Shown here piece after piece: positions 3,275-31,518 of a stretch of DNA of 64,000 nucleotides. The DNA comes from Escherichia coli (lineage in GTDB: Bacteria > Pseudomonadota > Gammaproteobacteria > Enterobacterales > Enterobacteriaceae). A program made the position numbers and the translations under genes. Below the pieces are notes generated by a model, which was not told where the DNA came from, ran no database searches, and was given only the letters and a program-made list of their open reading frames with translations. The stretch lies in NCBI RefSeq assembly GCF_003334305.1, contig NZ_QOWS01000009.1; one strand, given 5' to 3'. Positions within the stretch are counted from its first letter, which is position 1. Each line of letters opens with the position of its first letter.

Positions 3275-6790
<3,516 letters not shown>

Positions 6791-24377: not shown

Positions 24378-26093
24378 ATGAATTCGTTACAAATCTTGAG
24401 TTTTGTCGGTTTTACGCTGCTGGTGGCGGTGATCACCTGGTGGAAGGTCCGCAAAACAGATACCGGATCGCAACAAGGCTATTTTCTTGCCGGACGTTCA
24501 CTAAAAGCGCCGGTTATTGCCGCTTCGTTAATGCTAACCAACCTTTCCACGGAACAACTGGTCGGCCTTTCCGGGCAGGCCTACAAAAGCGGCATGTCGG
24601 TGATGGGCTGGGAAGTGACTTCAGCGGTGACGCTGATCTTCCTCGCGCTAATCTTTTTACCGCGCTATCTGAAGCGCGGCATTGCCACCATCCCCGATTT
24701 TCTGGAGGAACGTTATGATAAAACGACGCGTATTATCATCGACTTCTGCTTCCTCATTGCCACCGGCGTCTGCTTTCTGCCGATTGTTCTCTACTCCGGC
24801 GCGTTGGCGCTCAACAGCCTGTTTCACGTCGGGGAATCGCTACAGATTTCTCACGGTGCGGCTATCTGGCTACTGGTAATTTTGCTTGGTCTGGCGGGAA
24901 TTTTGTATGCGGTGATCGGCGGACTGCGCGCAATGGCAGTGGCGGACTCCATCAACGGTATTGGGCTGGTTATCGGCGGGTTGATGGTGCCGGTATTTGG
25001 CCTGATCGCGATGGGCAAGGGCAGCTTTATGCAGGGCATTGAGCAACTCACCACCGTTCACGCCGAGAAATTAAACTCAATCGGTGGCCCGACCGATCCC
25101 TTGCCGATTGGCGCGGCATTTACCGGTTTGATTCTGGTGAACACCTTTTACTGGTGTACAAATCAGGGCATCGTGCAACGCACGCTGGCGTCAAAAAGCC
25201 TGGCGGAAGGGCAAAAGGGGGCGCTGTTAACGGCGGTGCTGAAAATGCTCGACCCGCTGGTACTGGTGCTGCCAGGGTTGATTGCGTTTCATCTGTATCA
25301 GGATTTACCGAAAGCCGACATGGCCTACCCGACGCTGGTCAATAACGTTCTGCCAGTGCCAATGGTGGGTTTCTTCGGCGCGGTGTTATTTGGTGCGGTG
25401 ATCAGTACCTTCAACGGCTTTCTGAATAGCGCCAGTACGTTATTCAGTATGGGTATTTACCGTCGCATCATTAACCAGAATGCCGAGCCGCAGCAACTGG
25501 TCACCGTCGGGCGCAAATTTGGTTTCTTTATCGCTATCGTTTCGGTGCTGGTCGCGCCGTGGATCGCCAACGCGCCGCAGGGGCTGTATAGCTGGATGAA
25601 ACAGCTCAACGGCATTTACAACGTGCCGCTGGTTACCATCATCATTATGGGCTTTTTCTTCCCGCGCATCCCGGCGCTGGCGGCAAAAGTGGCGATGGGG
25701 ATTGGCATAATCAGCTACATCACCATCAACTATCTGGTGAAGTTCGACTTCCATTTCCTCTATGTGCTGGCCTGTACGTTCTGCATCAACGTGGTCGTGA
25801 TGCTGGTGATCGGTTTTATCAAACCGCGCGCCACGCCGTTCACCTTCAAAGATGCGTTTGCGGTGGACATGAAACCGTGGAGAAACGTCAAGATCGCGTC
25901 AATTGGCATCCTGTTCGCGATGATTGGCGTCTATGCCGGGCTGGCTGAATTCGGCGGCTACGGTACGCGCTGGTTAGCGATGATCAGTTATTTCATTGCC
26001 GCCGTAGTGATTGTCTACCTGATTTTTGACAGCTGGCGGCATCGTCACGACCCAGCCGTAACCTTTACTCCCGACGCGAAGGATAGCCTATGA
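24378..26093 (+). CDS. yidK: Solute:sodium symporter family transporter YidK
   Basis: 571-aa multi-TM ORF, divergent from yidL. Confidence 0.9.
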   Translation: MNSLQILSFVGFTLLVAVITWWKVRKTDTGSQQGYFLAGRSLKAPVIAASLMLTNLSTEQLVGLSGQAYKSGMSVMGWEVTSAVTLIFLALIFLPRYLKRGIATIPDFLEERYDKTTRIIIDFCFLIATGVCFLPIVLYSGALALNSLFHVGESLQISHGAAIWLLVILLGLAGILYAVIGGLRAMAVADSINGIGLVIGGLMVPVFGLIAMGKGSFMQGIEQLTTVHAEKLNSIGGPTDPLPIGAAFTGLILVNTFYWCTNQGIVQRTLASKSLAEGQKGALLTAVLKMLDPLVLVLPGLIAFHLYQDLPKADMAYPTLVNNVLPVPMVGFFGAVLFGAVISTFNGFLNSASTLFSMGIYRRIINQNAEPQQLVTVGRKFGFFIAIVSVLVAPWIANAPQGLYSWMKQLNGIYNVPLVTIIIMGFFFPRIPALAAKVAMGIGIISYITINYLVKFDFHFLYVLACTFCINVVVMLVIGFIKPRATPFTFKDAFAVDMKPWRNVKIASIGILFAMIGVYAGLAEFGGYGTRWLAMISYFIAAVVIVYLIFDSWRHRHDPAVTFTPDAKDSL

Positions 26094-27583
26094 AACGCCC
26101 CAATTTTCTGTTCATCATGACCGATACCCAGGCCACCAATATGGTCGGTTGCTATAGCGGTAAACCGCTGAATACGCAAAATATTGATAGTCTGGCGGCG
26201 GAAGGTATTCGCTTTAATTCCGCCTACACCTGTTCACCGGTTTGTACGCCTGCACGCGCCGGACTATTTACCGGTATCTACGCTAACCAGTCCGGCCCGT
26301 GGACCAACAACGTCGCGCCAGGCAAAAACATCTCCACTATGGGGCGCTACTTTAAGGATGCCGGCTATCACACCTGTTACATCGGCAAATGGCATCTCGA
26401 CGGTCATGACTATTTCGGCACTGGCGAGTGTCCGCCGGAGTGGGACGCTGATTACTGGTTCGATGGGGCGAACTACCTTAGCGAACTGACGGAAAAAGAG
26501 ATCAGCCTGTGGCGCAATGGCCTAAACAGTGTTGAGGATTTACAGGCGAACCATATCGACGAAACCTTCACCTGGGCGCACCGCATCAGCAATCGGGCGG
26601 TAGATTTTCTGCAACAGCCCGCGCGCGCCGAGGAACCCTTCCTGATGGTGGTTTCGTATGATGAGCCGCATCACCCGTTCACCTGTCCGGTGGAGTATTT
26701 AGAGAAATACGCTGATTTTTACTACGATCTGGGCGAGAAAGCTCAGGATGACCTGGCGAACAAACCGGAACATCACCGCTTATGGGCGCAGGCGATGCCA
26801 TCGCCAGTCGGTGATGACGGGCTTTATCACCATCCGCTCTATTTTGCCTGTAATGACTTTGTTGATGACCAAATCGGACGGGTCATCAATGCCTTAACGC
26901 CAGAGCAACGTGAAAATACGTGGGTCATTTATACTTCCGATCACGGCGAAATGATGGGCGCACATAAGCTGATCAGTAAAGGAGCGGCGATGTATGACGA
27001 CATCACCCGTATTCCGCTGATCATCCGTTCGCCGCAAGGGGAGCGGCGACAGGTCGATACGCCAGTCAGTCATATCGATTTACTGCCGACAATGATGGCG
27101 CTGGCAGATATTGAAAAACCAGAGATTCTGCCGGGGGAAAATATCCTTGCCGTGAAAGAGCCACGCGGTGTAATGGTGGAATTTAACCGCTACGAGATTG
27201 AGCATGACAGCTTTGGCGGTTTTATTCCGGTGCGTTGCTGGGTGACGGATGACTTTAAACTGGTACTCAACCTCTTCACCAGTGATGAACTTTACGATCG
27301 CCGTAATGACCCAAATGAAATGCATAACCTGATCGATGATATCCGTTTTGCAGACGTTCGCAGCAAAATGCATGACGCCTTATTGGATTACATGGACAAA
27401 ATTCGCGATCCGTTCCGCAGTTACCAATGGAGCCTGCGTCCGTGGCGTAAAGATGCACTGCCGCGCTGGATGGGGGCATTTCGTCCACGCCCACAAGATG
27501 GCTATTCGCCGGTGGTACGTGACTATGACACCGGCCTACCGACGCAAGGAGTGAAAGTGGAAGAGAAAAAACAGAAGTTCTGA
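26090..27583 (+). CDS. yidJ: Cys-type sulfatase YidJ
   Basis: 497-aa ORF with sulfatase signature C-T-P-A-R-AGLF-TG; overlaps the yidK stop. Confidence 0.9.
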   Translation: MKRPNFLFIMTDTQATNMVGCYSGKPLNTQNIDSLAAEGIRFNSAYTCSPVCTPARAGLFTGIYANQSGPWTNNVAPGKNISTMGRYFKDAGYHTCYIGKWHLDGHDYFGTGECPPEWDADYWFDGANYLSELTEKEISLWRNGLNSVEDLQANHIDETFTWAHRISNRAVDFLQQPARAEEPFLMVVSYDEPHHPFTCPVEYLEKYADFYYDLGEKAQDDLANKPEHHRLWAQAMPSPVGDDGLYHHPLYFACNDFVDDQIGRVINALTPEQRENTWVIYTSDHGEMMGAHKLISKGAAMYDDITRIPLIIRSPQGERRQVDTPVSHIDLLPTMMALADIEKPEILPGENILAVKEPRGVMVEFNRYEIEHDSFGGFIPVRCWVTDDFKLVLNLFTSDELYDRRNDPNEMHNLIDDIRFADVRSKMHDALLDYMDKIRDPFRSYQWSLRPWRKDALPRWMGAFRPRPQDGYSPVVRDYDTGLPTQGVKVEEKKQKF

Positions 27584-27586
27584 CGA

Positions 27587-27620
27587 TAATGCCCGCTGAT
27601 GAACACCCGGCGGGCATTAT
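27587..27620. terminator. Bidirectional hairpin between yidJ and yidI
   Basis: Inverted repeat atgcccgc ... gcgggcat between convergent genes. Confidence 0.5.
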
Positions 27621-27629
27621 TCAGGCTGC

Positions 27630-28079
27630 TTAAACCAGTGAACCGCCGGTCAGGAAGGAAAAAATCAGGAATATCAGCAAAATGCTGCACACGATGCCGA
27701 TACCAAAAAGCAAGGTATGGAAAGCCAGCGTCCCGCCGCCAAAAACCAGCGCGCCGCGAATGCCCCAGCGATTTTCCTTACGCATACCGCCAATAAATGC
27801 GCAAAGTAGCGCAGCAATGGCCAGTGCGATACCGCTTTGATCGAGGATTTTATCGACATCTACGTCCTCTTTTTTCTCCACGGTGGTAATTTTTTCGCCT
27901 TTTATTCCGGCGAGAAGACCTCTTTTAATTTCAGCCGTTTTGTCCGCCACGATGCTTTCAAACGTTGGCGGTGGTGCGGAAAAAGGGCCGAATGAAAAGT
28001 GGATAATCCCCATCATTAAAGCGATGGCACCGAACAGCATGCCCAATGAACTGATTTTATTTTGAGCTATGATACCCAT
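27630..28079 (-). CDS. yidI: Inner-membrane protein YidI
   Basis: 149-aa hydrophobic ORF. Confidence 0.85.
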   Translation of the reverse strand: MGIIAQNKISSLGMLFGAIALMMGIIHFSFGPFSAPPPTFESIVADKTAEIKRGLLAGIKGEKITTVEKKEDVDVDKILDQSGIALAIAALLCAFIGGMRKENRWGIRGALVFGGGTLAFHTLLFGIGIVCSILLIFLIFSFLTGGSLV

Positions 28080-28188
28080 CTGACCTCCTTGTAGCGGATG
28101 GCGAAAGCATATCAGGAAACGGGCGGACGAAATTCTTAAAAAAAAACCGCTAAAGGTAGAGCGTTAGTGAAATTGCAAAGGAGCAACA

Positions 28189-28536
28189 ATGAAAATTTCC
28201 CGCCTTGGAGAAGCGCCCGATTACCGCTTCTCGCTGGCTAATGAGCGTACTTTTCTGGCGTGGATCCGTACCGCACTAGGATTTCTGGCGGCGGGGGTTG
28301 GGCTTGATCAACTTGCGCCAGATTTCGCCACGCCCGTCATTCGTGAACTGCTGGCGTTGTTGTTGTGTCTGTTTTCCGGCGGGTTAGCGATGTATGGCTA
28401 CCTGCGCTGGTTACGCAATGAAAAAGCGATGCGTCTGAAAGAGGACCTGCCCTACACCAACAGCTTATTAATCATTAGCTTAATATTGATGGTCGTGGCG
28501 GTGATCGTTATGGGACTGGTGTTGTATGCCGGATAG
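28189..28536 (+). CDS. yidH: Inner-membrane protein YidH (DUF202)
   Basis: 115-aa ORF with ERTFLAWIRT motif. Confidence 0.85.
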   Translation: MKISRLGEAPDYRFSLANERTFLAWIRTALGFLAAGVGLDQLAPDFATPVIRELLALLLCLFSGGLAMYGYLRWLRNEKAMRLKEDLPYTNSLLIISLILMVVAVIVMGLVLYAG

Positions 28537-28888
28537 CCGCAAAGCCAGACGCATTGCCGACCCAGGACTGCAGCCGGAGCGCACATCACTGGCGTGGTTT
28601 CGTACCATGCTGGGCTACGGCGCGTTGATGGCGTTGGCTATCAAACACAACTGGCACCAGGCGGGCATGTTATTCTGGATTTCGATTGGCATTCTCGCCA
28701 TCGTGGCGCTGATCCTCTGGCACTACACCCGTAATCGCAATTTAATGGATGTCACGAATAGCGATTTTTCCCAATTTCACGTAGTCCGTGACAAATTTTT
28801 GATCTCCCTCGCGGTGTTATCTCTCGCAATACTGTTTGCTGTAACGCATATACATCAACTTATCGTATTTATTGAGAGAGTCGCATGA
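28526..28888 (+). CDS. yidG: Inner-membrane protein YidG (DUF202 paralogue)
   Basis: 120-aa ORF with ERTSLAWFRT motif; overlaps yidH by 11 nt. Confidence 0.85.
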   Translation: MPDSRKARRIADPGLQPERTSLAWFRTMLGYGALMALAIKHNWHQAGMLFWISIGILAIVALILWHYTRNRNLMDVTNSDFSQFHVVRDKFLISLAVLSLAILFAVTHIHQLIVFIERVA

Positions 28889-29382
28889 CAGGAAGTCAGG
28901 TCATTGATGCTGAAGAGGACAGGCATAAACTGGTTGTAGAGTACAAGGATGCTCTGCAACCTGCCGATTTTTATCACAATTTCAAACAGTGGGGCATCCG
29001 CTCCGTACAGCTCATTCCCTATCTTGAATTTGATGACCGGGGCGATCTGACGGCCGCTTCGGTGACAGCAGAGCTGTGGGGGAAATTTTTAATTGCCCTG
29101 TTCGAGTGTTGGGTGCGGGCAGATATCAGTCGTATCTCGATTGAGCTTTTTGACGCCACCTTACAAAAATGGTGTGGCAGCGAAAACCCGCAACCGCGCC
29201 GTGACTGCCAGGCGTGCGACTGGCATCGCCTGTGCCCGCACGCTCGCCAGGAGACGCCAGACAGCGTGCTTTGTGCGGGCTATCAGGCGTTTTATTCTTA
29301 CTCCGCACCGCATATGCGGGTGATGCGTGATCTGATAAAGCAGCATCGTTCTCCCATGGAGCTGATGACGATGCTGCGGTGA
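28885..29382 (+). CDS. yidF: YidF, SPASM-domain fragment resembling the C-terminal half of an anaerobic sulfatase-maturating enzyme
   Basis: 165-aa ORF with C-terminal cysteine cluster WCGSENPQPRRDCQACDWHRLCPH; no CxxxCxxC radical-SAM motif. Confidence 0.8.
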   Translation: MTGSQVIDAEEDRHKLVVEYKDALQPADFYHNFKQWGIRSVQLIPYLEFDDRGDLTAASVTAELWGKFLIALFECWVRADISRISIELFDATLQKWCGSENPQPRRDCQACDWHRLCPHARQETPDSVLCAGYQAFYSYSAPHMRVMRDLIKQHRSPMELMTMLR

Positions 29383-29389
29383 CGTGCGC

Positions 29390-30574
29390 TTAAACGGGCT
29401 GCCCCTGATGCGACATCCGCGTCGCCAGCGGCAGCCAGCACAGCACGATCAACAATCCCATTAAGGTCATCAACAACCCCAGGCTGCCCTGACCGGTTTG
29501 CGGCAACATCGCAGAGAGCGACGCCAGCACGCCGGAACCAATGTTTTGCAGACCGCCGACCAGCGCGCCAGCCGTGCCCGCCAGGAAGGGGAACGGCTCC
29601 ATCGCGCCGCTGGTCGCCAGCGGAAACAGCATCCCGGCACCGAAAAAGAACAGCGCGGCGGGAACGAGCAGCGTCCAGACATTCATCACGCCAAACCAGT
29701 CGGGGATCCACATCAGCAAGCCAGCCAGCAGGCAGCAGATAACCGACTGCCACATTAACGTGGAGAAGCGTTTATTGGGACGTCCGGCAAACCATGCGCC
29801 AAAAAACGCTGCCGGAATCGGCAGAATAAACAAAATACTGACCGTCATACTGCTCAGCCCTAACACCGCGCCCATCAGCACGCCGGAGCAGGCTTCAAAG
29901 GCGGCAATCCCGGCCAGACCGCCAATCAGCATCAGCAAATAACAGTTAAAACCGCTGTTACCGAAAAGCGTTTTATAACTGGTAAGCAGGCGCGTGCGCG
30001 GTGCATCGACCGGACGCGTTTCCGGCATCCAGCGGGCCATACTGAAGGTCACACCAGCACAAAGAACCAACAAAAAGAGATAACAGGCGCGCCAGTTCCA
30101 CATCGTATCCAGCAGACCGCCGATTAGCGGTGCGAGCAACGGACTGACGAGAATCCCCATGTTTAACAGGCTGTTAGCATGGCGCAACTGTGTCCGTTCA
30201 TATAAATCTCGCGGCAAAGTACGCGCCATTACGCCGCCAACGCCGGTGCCCATCCCCTGCATCGCGCTGGCGGCAATCAACACCGTCAAACTGGAGGTCG
30301 TGACCGCGACCAGCGTTGCCAGCATAAAAATGGACATTCCGACGAGGATCACCGGTCGGCGGCCCACGCGGTCGGAAATCGGGCCATAAAACAGCTGTGA
30401 GACACCGTAAGTCAGCAGATAAGCGCCCATTACGCTCTGCACCGCCCCTTCACGGACGTTGAGATCGCGCGCCATATCGGCAATAGCTGGAATATAAATG
30501 GTTTGCGCCATCTGACCGACGGCCACGAGTAATACCAACATCAATAACAAATTGACGTTTCTTTGCCTTTTCAT
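29390..30574 (-). CDS. emrD: Multidrug efflux MFS transporter EmrD
   Basis: Track ORF 29390..30580; start at MKRQRNVNLLLM to give 394 aa. Confidence 0.9.
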   Translation of the reverse strand: MKRQRNVNLLLMLVLLVAVGQMAQTIYIPAIADMARDLNVREGAVQSVMGAYLLTYGVSQLFYGPISDRVGRRPVILVGMSIFMLATLVAVTTSSLTVLIAASAMQGMGTGVGGVMARTLPRDLYERTQLRHANSLLNMGILVSPLLAPLIGGLLDTMWNWRACYLFLLVLCAGVTFSMARWMPETRPVDAPRTRLLTSYKTLFGNSGFNCYLLMLIGGLAGIAAFEACSGVLMGAVLGLSSMTVSILFILPIPAAFFGAWFAGRPNKRFSTLMWQSVICCLLAGLLMWIPDWFGVMNVWTLLVPAALFFFGAGMLFPLATSGAMEPFPFLAGTAGALVGGLQNIGSGVLASLSAMLPQTGQGSLGLLMTLMGLLIVLCWLPLATRMSHQGQPV

Positions 30575-30763
30575 TATCACGGATGCTTTTATAAAAATAA
30601 TTAGAATAAGTCACTACGCATTCCCATAAATGCGGGAGAGGAATCTATCACATTGATGAATGTTAGCCAGATATACGCCAGGAATGGGGAATTGTTTAGC
30701 GGCAGAATATGTAAACAAAAGCGGCAATAAATGTTGCCGGGAGGGATTACGTGCGAACTGTAA

Positions 30764-30861
30764 CCCTCTCCCCAAAGGGGCGAGGGGGAAACCACCGTTC
30801 CCTTTCAGAAAATGAGCTAAACATTGCACGGGACGGTCCCCTCGCCCCTTTGGGGAGAGGG
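30764..30861. repeat. Inverted-repeat element: 24-bp perfect arms separated by about 50 bp
   Basis: ccctctccccaaaggggcgagggg (30764-30787) is the exact reverse complement of cccctcgcccctttggggagaggg (30838-30861). Confidence 0.7.
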
Positions 30862-30944
30862 CTAGGGTGAGGGGCACAGGCAGCGCAGGTGCAAACATTC
30901 TGCTGGTAGAAGAAGCCCCCAACTCCAACCCGCACGCTAAATAT

Positions 30945-30974
30945 AAAAGGGGAGCGGTTACCCGCTCCCCTTTG
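30945..30974 (-). terminator. Rho-independent terminator of tisAB (bidirectional hairpin)
   Basis: aaaaggggagcgg-tta-cccgctcccctttt about 20 nt downstream of the tisB stop. Confidence 0.7.
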
Positions 30975-30992
30975 GTGCGACTTGAATCTGAA

Positions 30993-31354: not shown

Positions 31355-31442
31355 AACTGTGATCGATACTCAACTATGCCCTAAATACGTCAAAATTCGT
31401 GCCGAAATTGCGCGTTCTGCGCGGAACACGTATACTTTCAGT

Positions 31443-31518
31443 GTTGACATAATACAGTGTGCTTTGCGGTTACCAGCCGCAGGCGGCTGATGAAACCTCG
31501 CTCCGGCGGGGTTTTTTG
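31443..31518 (+). ncRNA. istR: IstR-1 antitoxin sRNA (longer IstR-2 isoform would start upstream, near 31370-31380)
   Basis: About 75-nt unit ending in an intrinsic terminator (GC-rich stem plus tttttt at 31512-31517); its 5' 20 nt ttgacataatacagtgtgct is near-identical to 31189-31208 in the tisAB leader, so the two RNAs are complementary; TATACT -10 at about 31432. Confidence 0.6.

Follow-up and report, generated by a model that had tools for sequence, protein, structure and literature searches.

What do two small membrane proteins do that almost every strain of Escherichia coli encodes side by side, in reading frames that run into each other? The question is raised by a stretch of 64,000 nucleotides of an E. 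coli contig (NZ_QOWS01000009.1, hereafter the window), in which yidH (28189..28536, + strand; 115 aa) and yidG (28526..28888, + strand; 120 aa) are both intact ORFs that start with ATG. Together they make up a 700-bp pair that belongs to the core of the species (5421 of the 5426 complete E. coli genomes) and has no assigned function. Several complete E. coli genomes match positions 27500 to 29500 of the window at 100% identity, and in this identical sequence RefSeq names the two products "YidH family protein" and "DUF202 domain-containing protein". Both genes and their membership of DUF202 had, in other words, already been annotated. What we add here is the near-universal pairing of the two genes, an AlphaFold signal that depends on correct pairing, and a recurrent link to cytoplasmic enzymes that form sulfate. 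This last link, and the homology to the VTC complex of yeast, were absent from the first-pass annotation of the locus, which had been a reading of the sequence alone.

The pair in E. coli and in other bacteria

A Shine-Dalgarno-like AAGGAG (28178..28183, + strand) lies 5 nt 5' of the yidH ATG. The two genes share 11 nt (28526..28536, + strand), a putative site of translational coupling, with the yidG ATG (28526-28528) falling within yidH and the yidH TAG at 28534-28536. At its other end yidG shares 4 nt (ATGA) with yidF (28885..29382, + strand), the 165-aa remnant of an anaerobic sulfatase maturase and the third gene of the coupled string. Upstream, yidI (27630..28079, - strand) stands here between yidH and yidJ (26090..27583, + strand), a Cys-type sulfatase that provides functional context. 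The position of the pair between yidI and yidF, the 11-nt overlap and the description of yidF as a maturase fragment had all been put forward in the first-pass annotation, and the ORF coordinates and the sequence bear them out. Between yidI and yidH no sigma-70-like site came up in a promoter scan, a result that weighs neither way.

Two further features were seen downstream. The emrD-tisB intergenic region of the window (30761-30864) contains an inverted repeat with arms of 27 nt, 96% complementary and 50 nt apart; a third, related copy of 20 nt follows at 30961-30980, and the whole resembles a small intergenic repeat element. The Hfq-binding antitoxin RNA istR was located at 31388-31517 of the window (Rfam RF01400, 149 bits), with tisB close to it, judging from how RefSeq annotates the identical region.

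Within E. coli the pair changes little. Strain ABU 83972 differs at 8 nt of yidH and at 3 nt of yidG and encodes the same two proteins; yidF evolves faster than yidHG (15 nt and 5 aa changes). Compared with E. albertii, yidH has 33 nt and 1 aa changes and yidG 20 nt and 3 aa changes. These figures indicate strong purifying selection on yidHG, which persists as a core pair of E. coli even where yidJ has been lost and yidF is degraded. The gene yidI lies outside the conserved unit. It is absent from ca. 1700 of the 5421 genomes, ABU 83972 and ST131 among them, and in these strains yidJ is followed by yidH on the same strand after only 59 nt, which in ABU 83972 gives the one-strand order yidK (a Na+/solute symporter), yidJ (the sulfatase), the 59-nt gap, yidH, yidG and yidF. 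By comparison of the junctions, the yidI-less strains are homologous to the window again from 28178 onwards, exactly where the ribosome-binding site of yidH lies. Strain LD93-1 has a different arrangement, in which a degraded IS200/IS605 tnpA and an intact TnpB (InsQ) gene take the place of yidL-yidK-yidJ-yidI (L003, 3177-4957); the replacement ends ca. 170 nt upstream of yidH and leaves yidHGF untouched.

The N-terminal motif said to be common to both proteins was found as described, ANERTFLAWIRT in YidH and QPERTSLAWFRT in YidG. A search with the DUF202 HMM, which had been suggested as a test of the assignment, matched both of them (Pfam PF02656; YidH, E=6.3e-19, model positions 1-68 of 68; YidG, E=3e-11, positions 1-57 of 68). 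Pairwise BLASTP of YidH against YidG gave E=8e-5, with an alignment that consists of the 17-aa motif alone, and hhalign of the two families (profiles from 42 YidH-type and 44 YidG-type sequences) gave a probability of 97.8% over 91 columns (E=9.6e-13). Taken together, the three methods place the similarity beyond chance and uphold the paralogy of the two proteins. Identity between the families is ca. 24%, and hydropathy predicts three TM segments in each protein.

Each subfamily has nevertheless retained a signature of its own. In the YidH family R13, E19, R20, R27, R52, R73, W74, E78 and R82 are conserved, and the YidG family has the signature DPGLQPERTxLAWxRT together with a conserved basic residue, K40, and a conserved R71. 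Mean column identity is 44% for YidH versus 27% for YidG, making YidH the more conserved subunit and YidG the faster-evolving one. No family was assigned to YidH, YidG or YidI by an NCBIfam scan, and in Pfam scans of YidH and YidG only DUF202 was significant, with no hit to PF01925 or to the YeiH family.

How far this arrangement extends was seen in a scan with the YidH profile, at one genome per species, which gave at least 590 loci. The best 80 were kept and span Enterobacterales, Vibrio, Azospirillum, Bordetella, Acetobacter and many Actinobacteria; one, a contig of 461 bp, was excluded, leaving 79 usable loci. A YidG-type gene follows directly 3' of YidH on the same strand in 78 of the 79 (from the best 80 of at least 590), and the H-then-G order and the tight coupling are kept in all of these 78, neither gene being found alone in the sampled loci. 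A failure of the two genes to co-occur elsewhere had been named as what would overturn the first-pass annotation; they are adjacent in distant phyla. The pair is an ancient, obligate unit. Its only split version was in Acetobacter garciniae (L047; 1570 and 5055), where the YidG-type gene lies ca. 3.4 kb upstream of the YidH-type gene and a sulfatase (3458-4762) is found between them.

When the start codon nearest to the YidH stop is taken, a heuristic that is biased toward overlaps, 53 of 75 loci have a candidate yidG start that overlaps with the stop of YidH (by 4 nt in 31 and by 11 nt in 15), and the remainder mostly have gaps of up to 24 nt. The 15 loci with the 11-nt overlap are from Enterobacteriaceae, and an overlap of 11 nt was also seen in Klebsiella and Salmonella. 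Overlapping starts and stops, or very short gaps, are the rule, which supports the translational coupling proposed earlier and suggests, by the conserved overlap or abutment, that yidH and yidG are a coupled operon pair. Two apparent "proteins" of 217-237 aa on high-GC contigs (P0211 and P0229) contain the YidH motif, an Arg-rich stretch that looks out of frame, and the YidG motif. They are probably artefacts of gene calling or frameshifts across the overlap and not real fusions.

Resemblance to the yeast VTC pore

Searched against the PDB as a single sequence, YidH matched the yeast Vtc1 chain over its full length (E=0.0025). Its family profile (hmmsearch) reached Vtc1 (E=8e-7), Vtc3 (2.5e-4) and Vtc4 (0.04). 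YidG alone gave nothing meaningful against the PDB sequences, and Vtc1 was reached only with the family profile (E=0.022). The three-TM-helix fold of YidH and YidG is superposable on the TM domains of Vtc1, Vtc3 and Vtc4 (PDB 7ytj, 8i6v, 9umg), which belong to the same Pfam family, DUF202. VTC is a heteropentamer of three-helix subunits (three Vtc1, one Vtc3 and one Vtc4) with a polyphosphate pore lined by the TM1 helices; the cytoplasmic mouth of this pore has two positive rings, made up of K24 and R31, and E30 and R83, both strictly conserved, provide "ionic locks" between subunits (bioRxiv 10.1101/2023.01.27.525886).

Many of these residues have counterparts in the bacterial pair. The TM1 motif ANERTFL.W is common to both systems, with the Glu-Arg pair that in VTC contributes to the inter-subunit lock and to the second positive ring. 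In the alignment R13, E19 and R20 of YidH correspond to K24, E30 and R31 of Vtc1, E18 and R19 of YidG to E30 and R31, and R71 of YidG to R83. The aligned residues are 94-100% conserved among the 79 pairs (YidH E19 100% and R20 97%; YidG E18 99% and R19 100%). At the spacing of Vtc1 K24, six residues before the Glu, YidH has the invariant R13 and YidG has D12, conserved in 80%. In the column of Vtc1 R83, YidG has R71 (94%); YidH is variable there, but R73 (86%) and R82 (100%) are nearby. Some natural variants of the otherwise invariant motif could guide mutagenesis. The YidH of Arthrobacter (L065 and L068) reads ANETT, with Thr replacing Arg at the position of Vtc1 R31, and the YidG of Pectobacterium (L045) reads QPQRT, with Gln replacing Glu at the position of Vtc1 E30.

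The likeness would extend, as far as the sequences and a structural model can tell, to an assembly of paralogous subunits with a basic vestibule that faces the cytoplasm. The differences are also clear. Unlike the VTC proteins, YidH and YidG (115 and 120 aa) consist of DUF202 only, without a fused polymerase or SPX domain; an overlapping operon encodes them 1:1 as the only two types of subunit; YidG has no equivalent of Vtc1 K24 and YidH no conserved Arg at the position aligned with R83; and YidHG belongs to the bacterial inner membrane, in a gene context that points to sulfate or sulfite rather than polyphosphate. Coupled 1:1 expression is an awkward fit to a pentamer. Weighing the homology and the likeness to VTC together, we consider that an anion-conducting pore of the VTC type is plausible, with a chance that falls slightly below even.

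Genes of sulfur metabolism around the pair

Clustering of the flanking ORFs of 78 loci showed that the most widespread neighbour families are the anaerobic sulfatase maturase (anSME; 15 loci) and the sulfatase (15-16 loci), and that these two are the only families that cross orders. Their arrangement follows at least five gene orders, among them symporter-sulfatase-maturase-H-G in L008 and in a Vibrio. Among the linked sulfatases, which are 23-29% identical to YidJ, at least four subfamilies are represented. All of them open directly with the catalytic domain, carry CxPxR, of the Cys type, within the first ca. 70 residues of the listed ORF (at residue 52-56 in most of those with a strict match) and have no signal peptide, so that they should release sulfate inside the cell.

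Other enzymes of sulfur oxyanions are found in Actinobacteria. A SorA/SoxC-type sulfite dehydrogenase (NCBIfam, E=3.5e-56 and 1e-66) adjoins the yidH-like gene in four loci, at spacings of -4, -1, +3 and 276 nt, and in three more loci a metallo-beta-lactamase/rhodanese fusion of the persulfide-dioxygenase type lies 0.7-2 kb from the pair. Rhodanese, TauE-like and CsoR-like genes surround the fusion in mycobacterial loci. A Pfam census outside Enterobacteriaceae, which took in 300 neighbour ORFs of 60 loci in two sets, gave a similar list: Sulfatase 8, Radical_SAM/SPASM 4, TauE 3 and Rhodanese 3 in the first set, and Bac_luciferase 4, Oxidored_molyb 3, Mo-co_dimer 2 and STAS 2 in the second. 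Enzymes of sulfur oxyanions are the only neighbours that recur across taxa, and what sulfatase and sulfite dehydrogenase have in common is their product, sulfate. Overall, ca. 23 of the 79 loci adjoin an enzyme that makes sulfate or sulfite and ca. 56 (ca. 70%) have no sulfur-related gene nearby, the enrichment being judged against an assumed genomic background and not a computed one. The pairs of Pectobacteriaceae, for example, are found among housekeeping genes (dut, slmA, pyrE, rph, cydB, fdhE), and in Salmonella a bare pair lies between yidE and emrD.

The sulfate or sulfite exporters currently discussed, TauE/SafE (PF01925) and PSE/YeiH/SuyZ (TC 2.A.98), were assigned largely by gene context in the same way. 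They are likewise small or medium inner-membrane proteins encoded beside enzymes that release sulfite or sulfate into the cytoplasm, and TauE-family genes are found near some yidHG pairs. YidH and YidG, however, have no sequence or fold relationship to them; the putative exporters are single polypeptides with 7-11 TM helices, and YidHG is a two-gene set of 3-TM subunits.

The best overall explanation that we can offer, and one on which our judgement is evenly poised, is that the coupled paralogues form a hetero-oligomeric, VTC-like anion pore that possibly exports sulfate or sulfite. Its substrate, read from the gene neighbourhoods, is the more tentative part, and we would call sulfate or sulfite a possible assignment rather than a likely one. 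The complex might instead be conserved for a role that has nothing to do with sulfur oxyanions, whether as a general factor in stress, redox or metal homeostasis, as the regulator or scaffold of some other membrane protein or as a channel that conducts a different ion, the linkage to sulfatases being a lineage-specific accident of gene order. The phenotype of a yidH deletion, sensitivity to H2O2 with lower NADPH and higher cellular iron (PMC4054840), speaks for such a role. Overexpression of YidH scored in a bioassay for D-alanine export, with D-alanine accumulation unchanged and a transport assay that did not confirm it (PMC10299036). These phenotypes do not point to sulfur, and our literature search found no paper that links yidH or yidG to sulfur. 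As they are all at the level of screens, the earlier statement that the pair has no known function is essentially correct. The majority of loci without a sulfur gene, the solitary pair of Salmonella and the persistence of yidHG in E. coli strains that have lost yidJ or carry a degraded yidF also speak for a role of this kind. Against it, three unrelated kinds of sulfur-oxyanion enzymes recur beside the pair in different phyla and gene orders, often with overlapping starts and stops, and no other functional class does so across taxa. We consider a role unrelated to sulfur rather unlikely.

The prominence of the maturase raises another possibility, that the pair is an accessory of sulfatase maturation and not a channel, anchoring the radical-SAM maturase or supplying it with reductant or iron-sulfur clusters. 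An anSME gene directly follows the pair in 13 loci, more often than any other gene does and usually sharing 4 nt with yidG, and it is found immediately upstream of yidH in L008 and L030; the iron phenotype of the yidH deletion could fit the handling of iron-sulfur clusters (PMC4054840). However, six loci have a sulfatase and no maturase nearby, the actinobacterial pairs beside genes for sulfite dehydrogenase or the dioxygenase-rhodanese have no maturase either, and the fold is that of a pore-forming unit.

The history of yidF also bears on this point. The E. coli gene has suffered two in-frame internal deletions that eliminated the radical-SAM cluster (CxxxCxxC) and a portion of the SPASM region, and retains the N-terminal MTG.Q and the C-terminus. 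The operon has the same make-up in Citrobacter werkmanii, Kluyvera, Pseudocitrobacter and an Enterobacter species, where a full-length orthologue with CxxxCxxC closes it in place of the remnant; the copy of Pluralibacter has the motif and is split into two ORFs. Open remnants of 166-176 aa, with the 4-nt overlap with yidG kept, are present in Citrobacter youngae and Klebsiella pneumoniae. The E. coli gene may be in decay or may have acquired a new use. The idea that yidHG had been inserted into an intact yidF was rejected, because the E. coli gene shows internal deletions and the full-length yidF of its relatives follows yidG at the same junction. E. coli and Klebsiella keep yidHG under purifying selection after the radical-SAM core of yidF was lost, which is hard to reconcile with an accessory of the maturase, and we regard this role as improbable.

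For YidJ itself, which has CTPAR (Cys-type) at residue 52 and no signal peptide, a cytoplasmic location is predicted. Its cognate maturase, yidF, appears from these deletions to be non-functional in this genome, so that maturation of YidJ would need another enzyme, or else YidJ would be inactive.

A probable heteromeric complex and what it may do

To model the two proteins together, AlphaFold2 was given a paired alignment of 52 YidH-(G4S)6-YidG fusions, with each row from one locus. With true pairing, the fused 1:1 model had six long helices joined by a disordered linker, a mean pLDDT of 78.3 and a pTM of 0.75. In a shuffled control, with the same sequences and each YidH joined to the YidG of a distant genome, pLDDT was 81.5 and pTM 0.58, in a contrast that comes from a single run per condition, an artificial fusion and 52 alignment rows. 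The fall of pTM on shuffling means that confidence in the relative placement of the two halves depends on correct pairing. This is what a co-evolving interface between YidH and YidG would give, and we take it as supportive, not decisive. The suggestion in the first-pass annotation of a two-subunit membrane complex thus gains indirect support from three sides, the obligate co-inheritance, the homology to a hetero-oligomeric pore and the pairing-dependent model, and we think it quite probable that YidH and YidG form a heteromeric complex.

The alternative would be that each protein forms homo-oligomers independently of the other, adjacency being an old tandem duplication kept by operon inertia. 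Homotypic contacts of Vtc1 do occur in VTC (bioRxiv 10.1101/2023.01.27.525886), which speaks for the idea. Inertia would nevertheless have had to preserve adjacency, order and coupling in 78 of 79 loci across phyla, between families that are only ca. 24% identical, with neither gene ever alone in the sampled loci and with both subfamily signatures intact. The dependence of pTM on the correct pairing of rows also argues against it, and we find independent assemblies highly improbable. Translationally coupled membrane proteins of a comparable kind are, for example, the heterodimeric pairs of the SMR type, which are also short paralogues encoded by overlapping genes and presumed to be functional only as hetero-oligomers. 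Their fold is unrelated, with four TM helices in an antiparallel topology, and their mechanism is a drug/proton antiport and not the ring pore proposed for YidHG.

A bacterial polyphosphate channel, passing polyphosphate across the inner membrane exactly as VTC does, has in its favour the homology in fold and motif to the VTC pore and the conserved basic residues at the aligned vestibule positions, but proteins of this size have no catalytic tunnel or SPX domain, translocation by VTC is coupled to synthesis by the attached polymerase (bioRxiv 10.1101/2023.01.27.525886), and no polyphosphate kinase, polymerase or other polyphosphate-related family was among those listed for the 300 neighbour ORFs or in the recurrent neighbour clusters, on which account we have set this reading aside as scarcely credible.

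Under the preferred reading, that of a hetero-oligomeric anion pore, the pair might work as follows. The two genes, anciently diverged paralogues of a three-helix DUF202 unit, would be transcribed together, and their translation would be coupled by the yidG start inside the yidH stop region. YidH and YidG would then come together as neighbours in a hetero-oligomeric ring similar to that of the VTC pore, with the TM1 helices lining a central pore and the conserved Arg and Glu of the ERT motif at its cytoplasmic mouth. The Arg after TM2 (R71 of YidG, aligned with Vtc1 R83) would lock neighbouring subunits. A pore lined by TM1 and with a basic cytoplasmic mouth would be suited to anions, and it could give a small anion a way out of the cytoplasm, the most plausible being sulfate (or sulfite) produced there by sulfatases, sulfite dehydrogenases or persulfide dioxygenases. 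It is tempting to go further and to see in the DUF202 pairs both a widespread and previously unrecognised class of bacterial hetero-oligomeric sulfate/sulfite channels, serving sulfatases, sulfite dehydrogenases and enzymes of sulfide oxidation, and the prokaryotic, stand-alone ancestor of the VTC pore, which eukaryotes would later have fused to a polymerase to give the polyphosphate translocase; this joint proposal we consider doubtful, and put it forward as a speculation.

The route by which bacteria rid themselves of internally formed sulfate or sulfite is an unsettled matter, and if the reading preferred here is true, the DUF202 pair would be a new class of transporter for this purpose. 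It would also be a simple and genetically tractable bacterial counterpart of the eukaryotic VTC pore, and would help to annotate many genomes, given the at least 590 loci found in one species-level scan. If the link to sulfur is wrong, the pair would still appear, from its inheritance and the model, to be a clear case of an obligate membrane complex of two paralogues, and one worth purifying.
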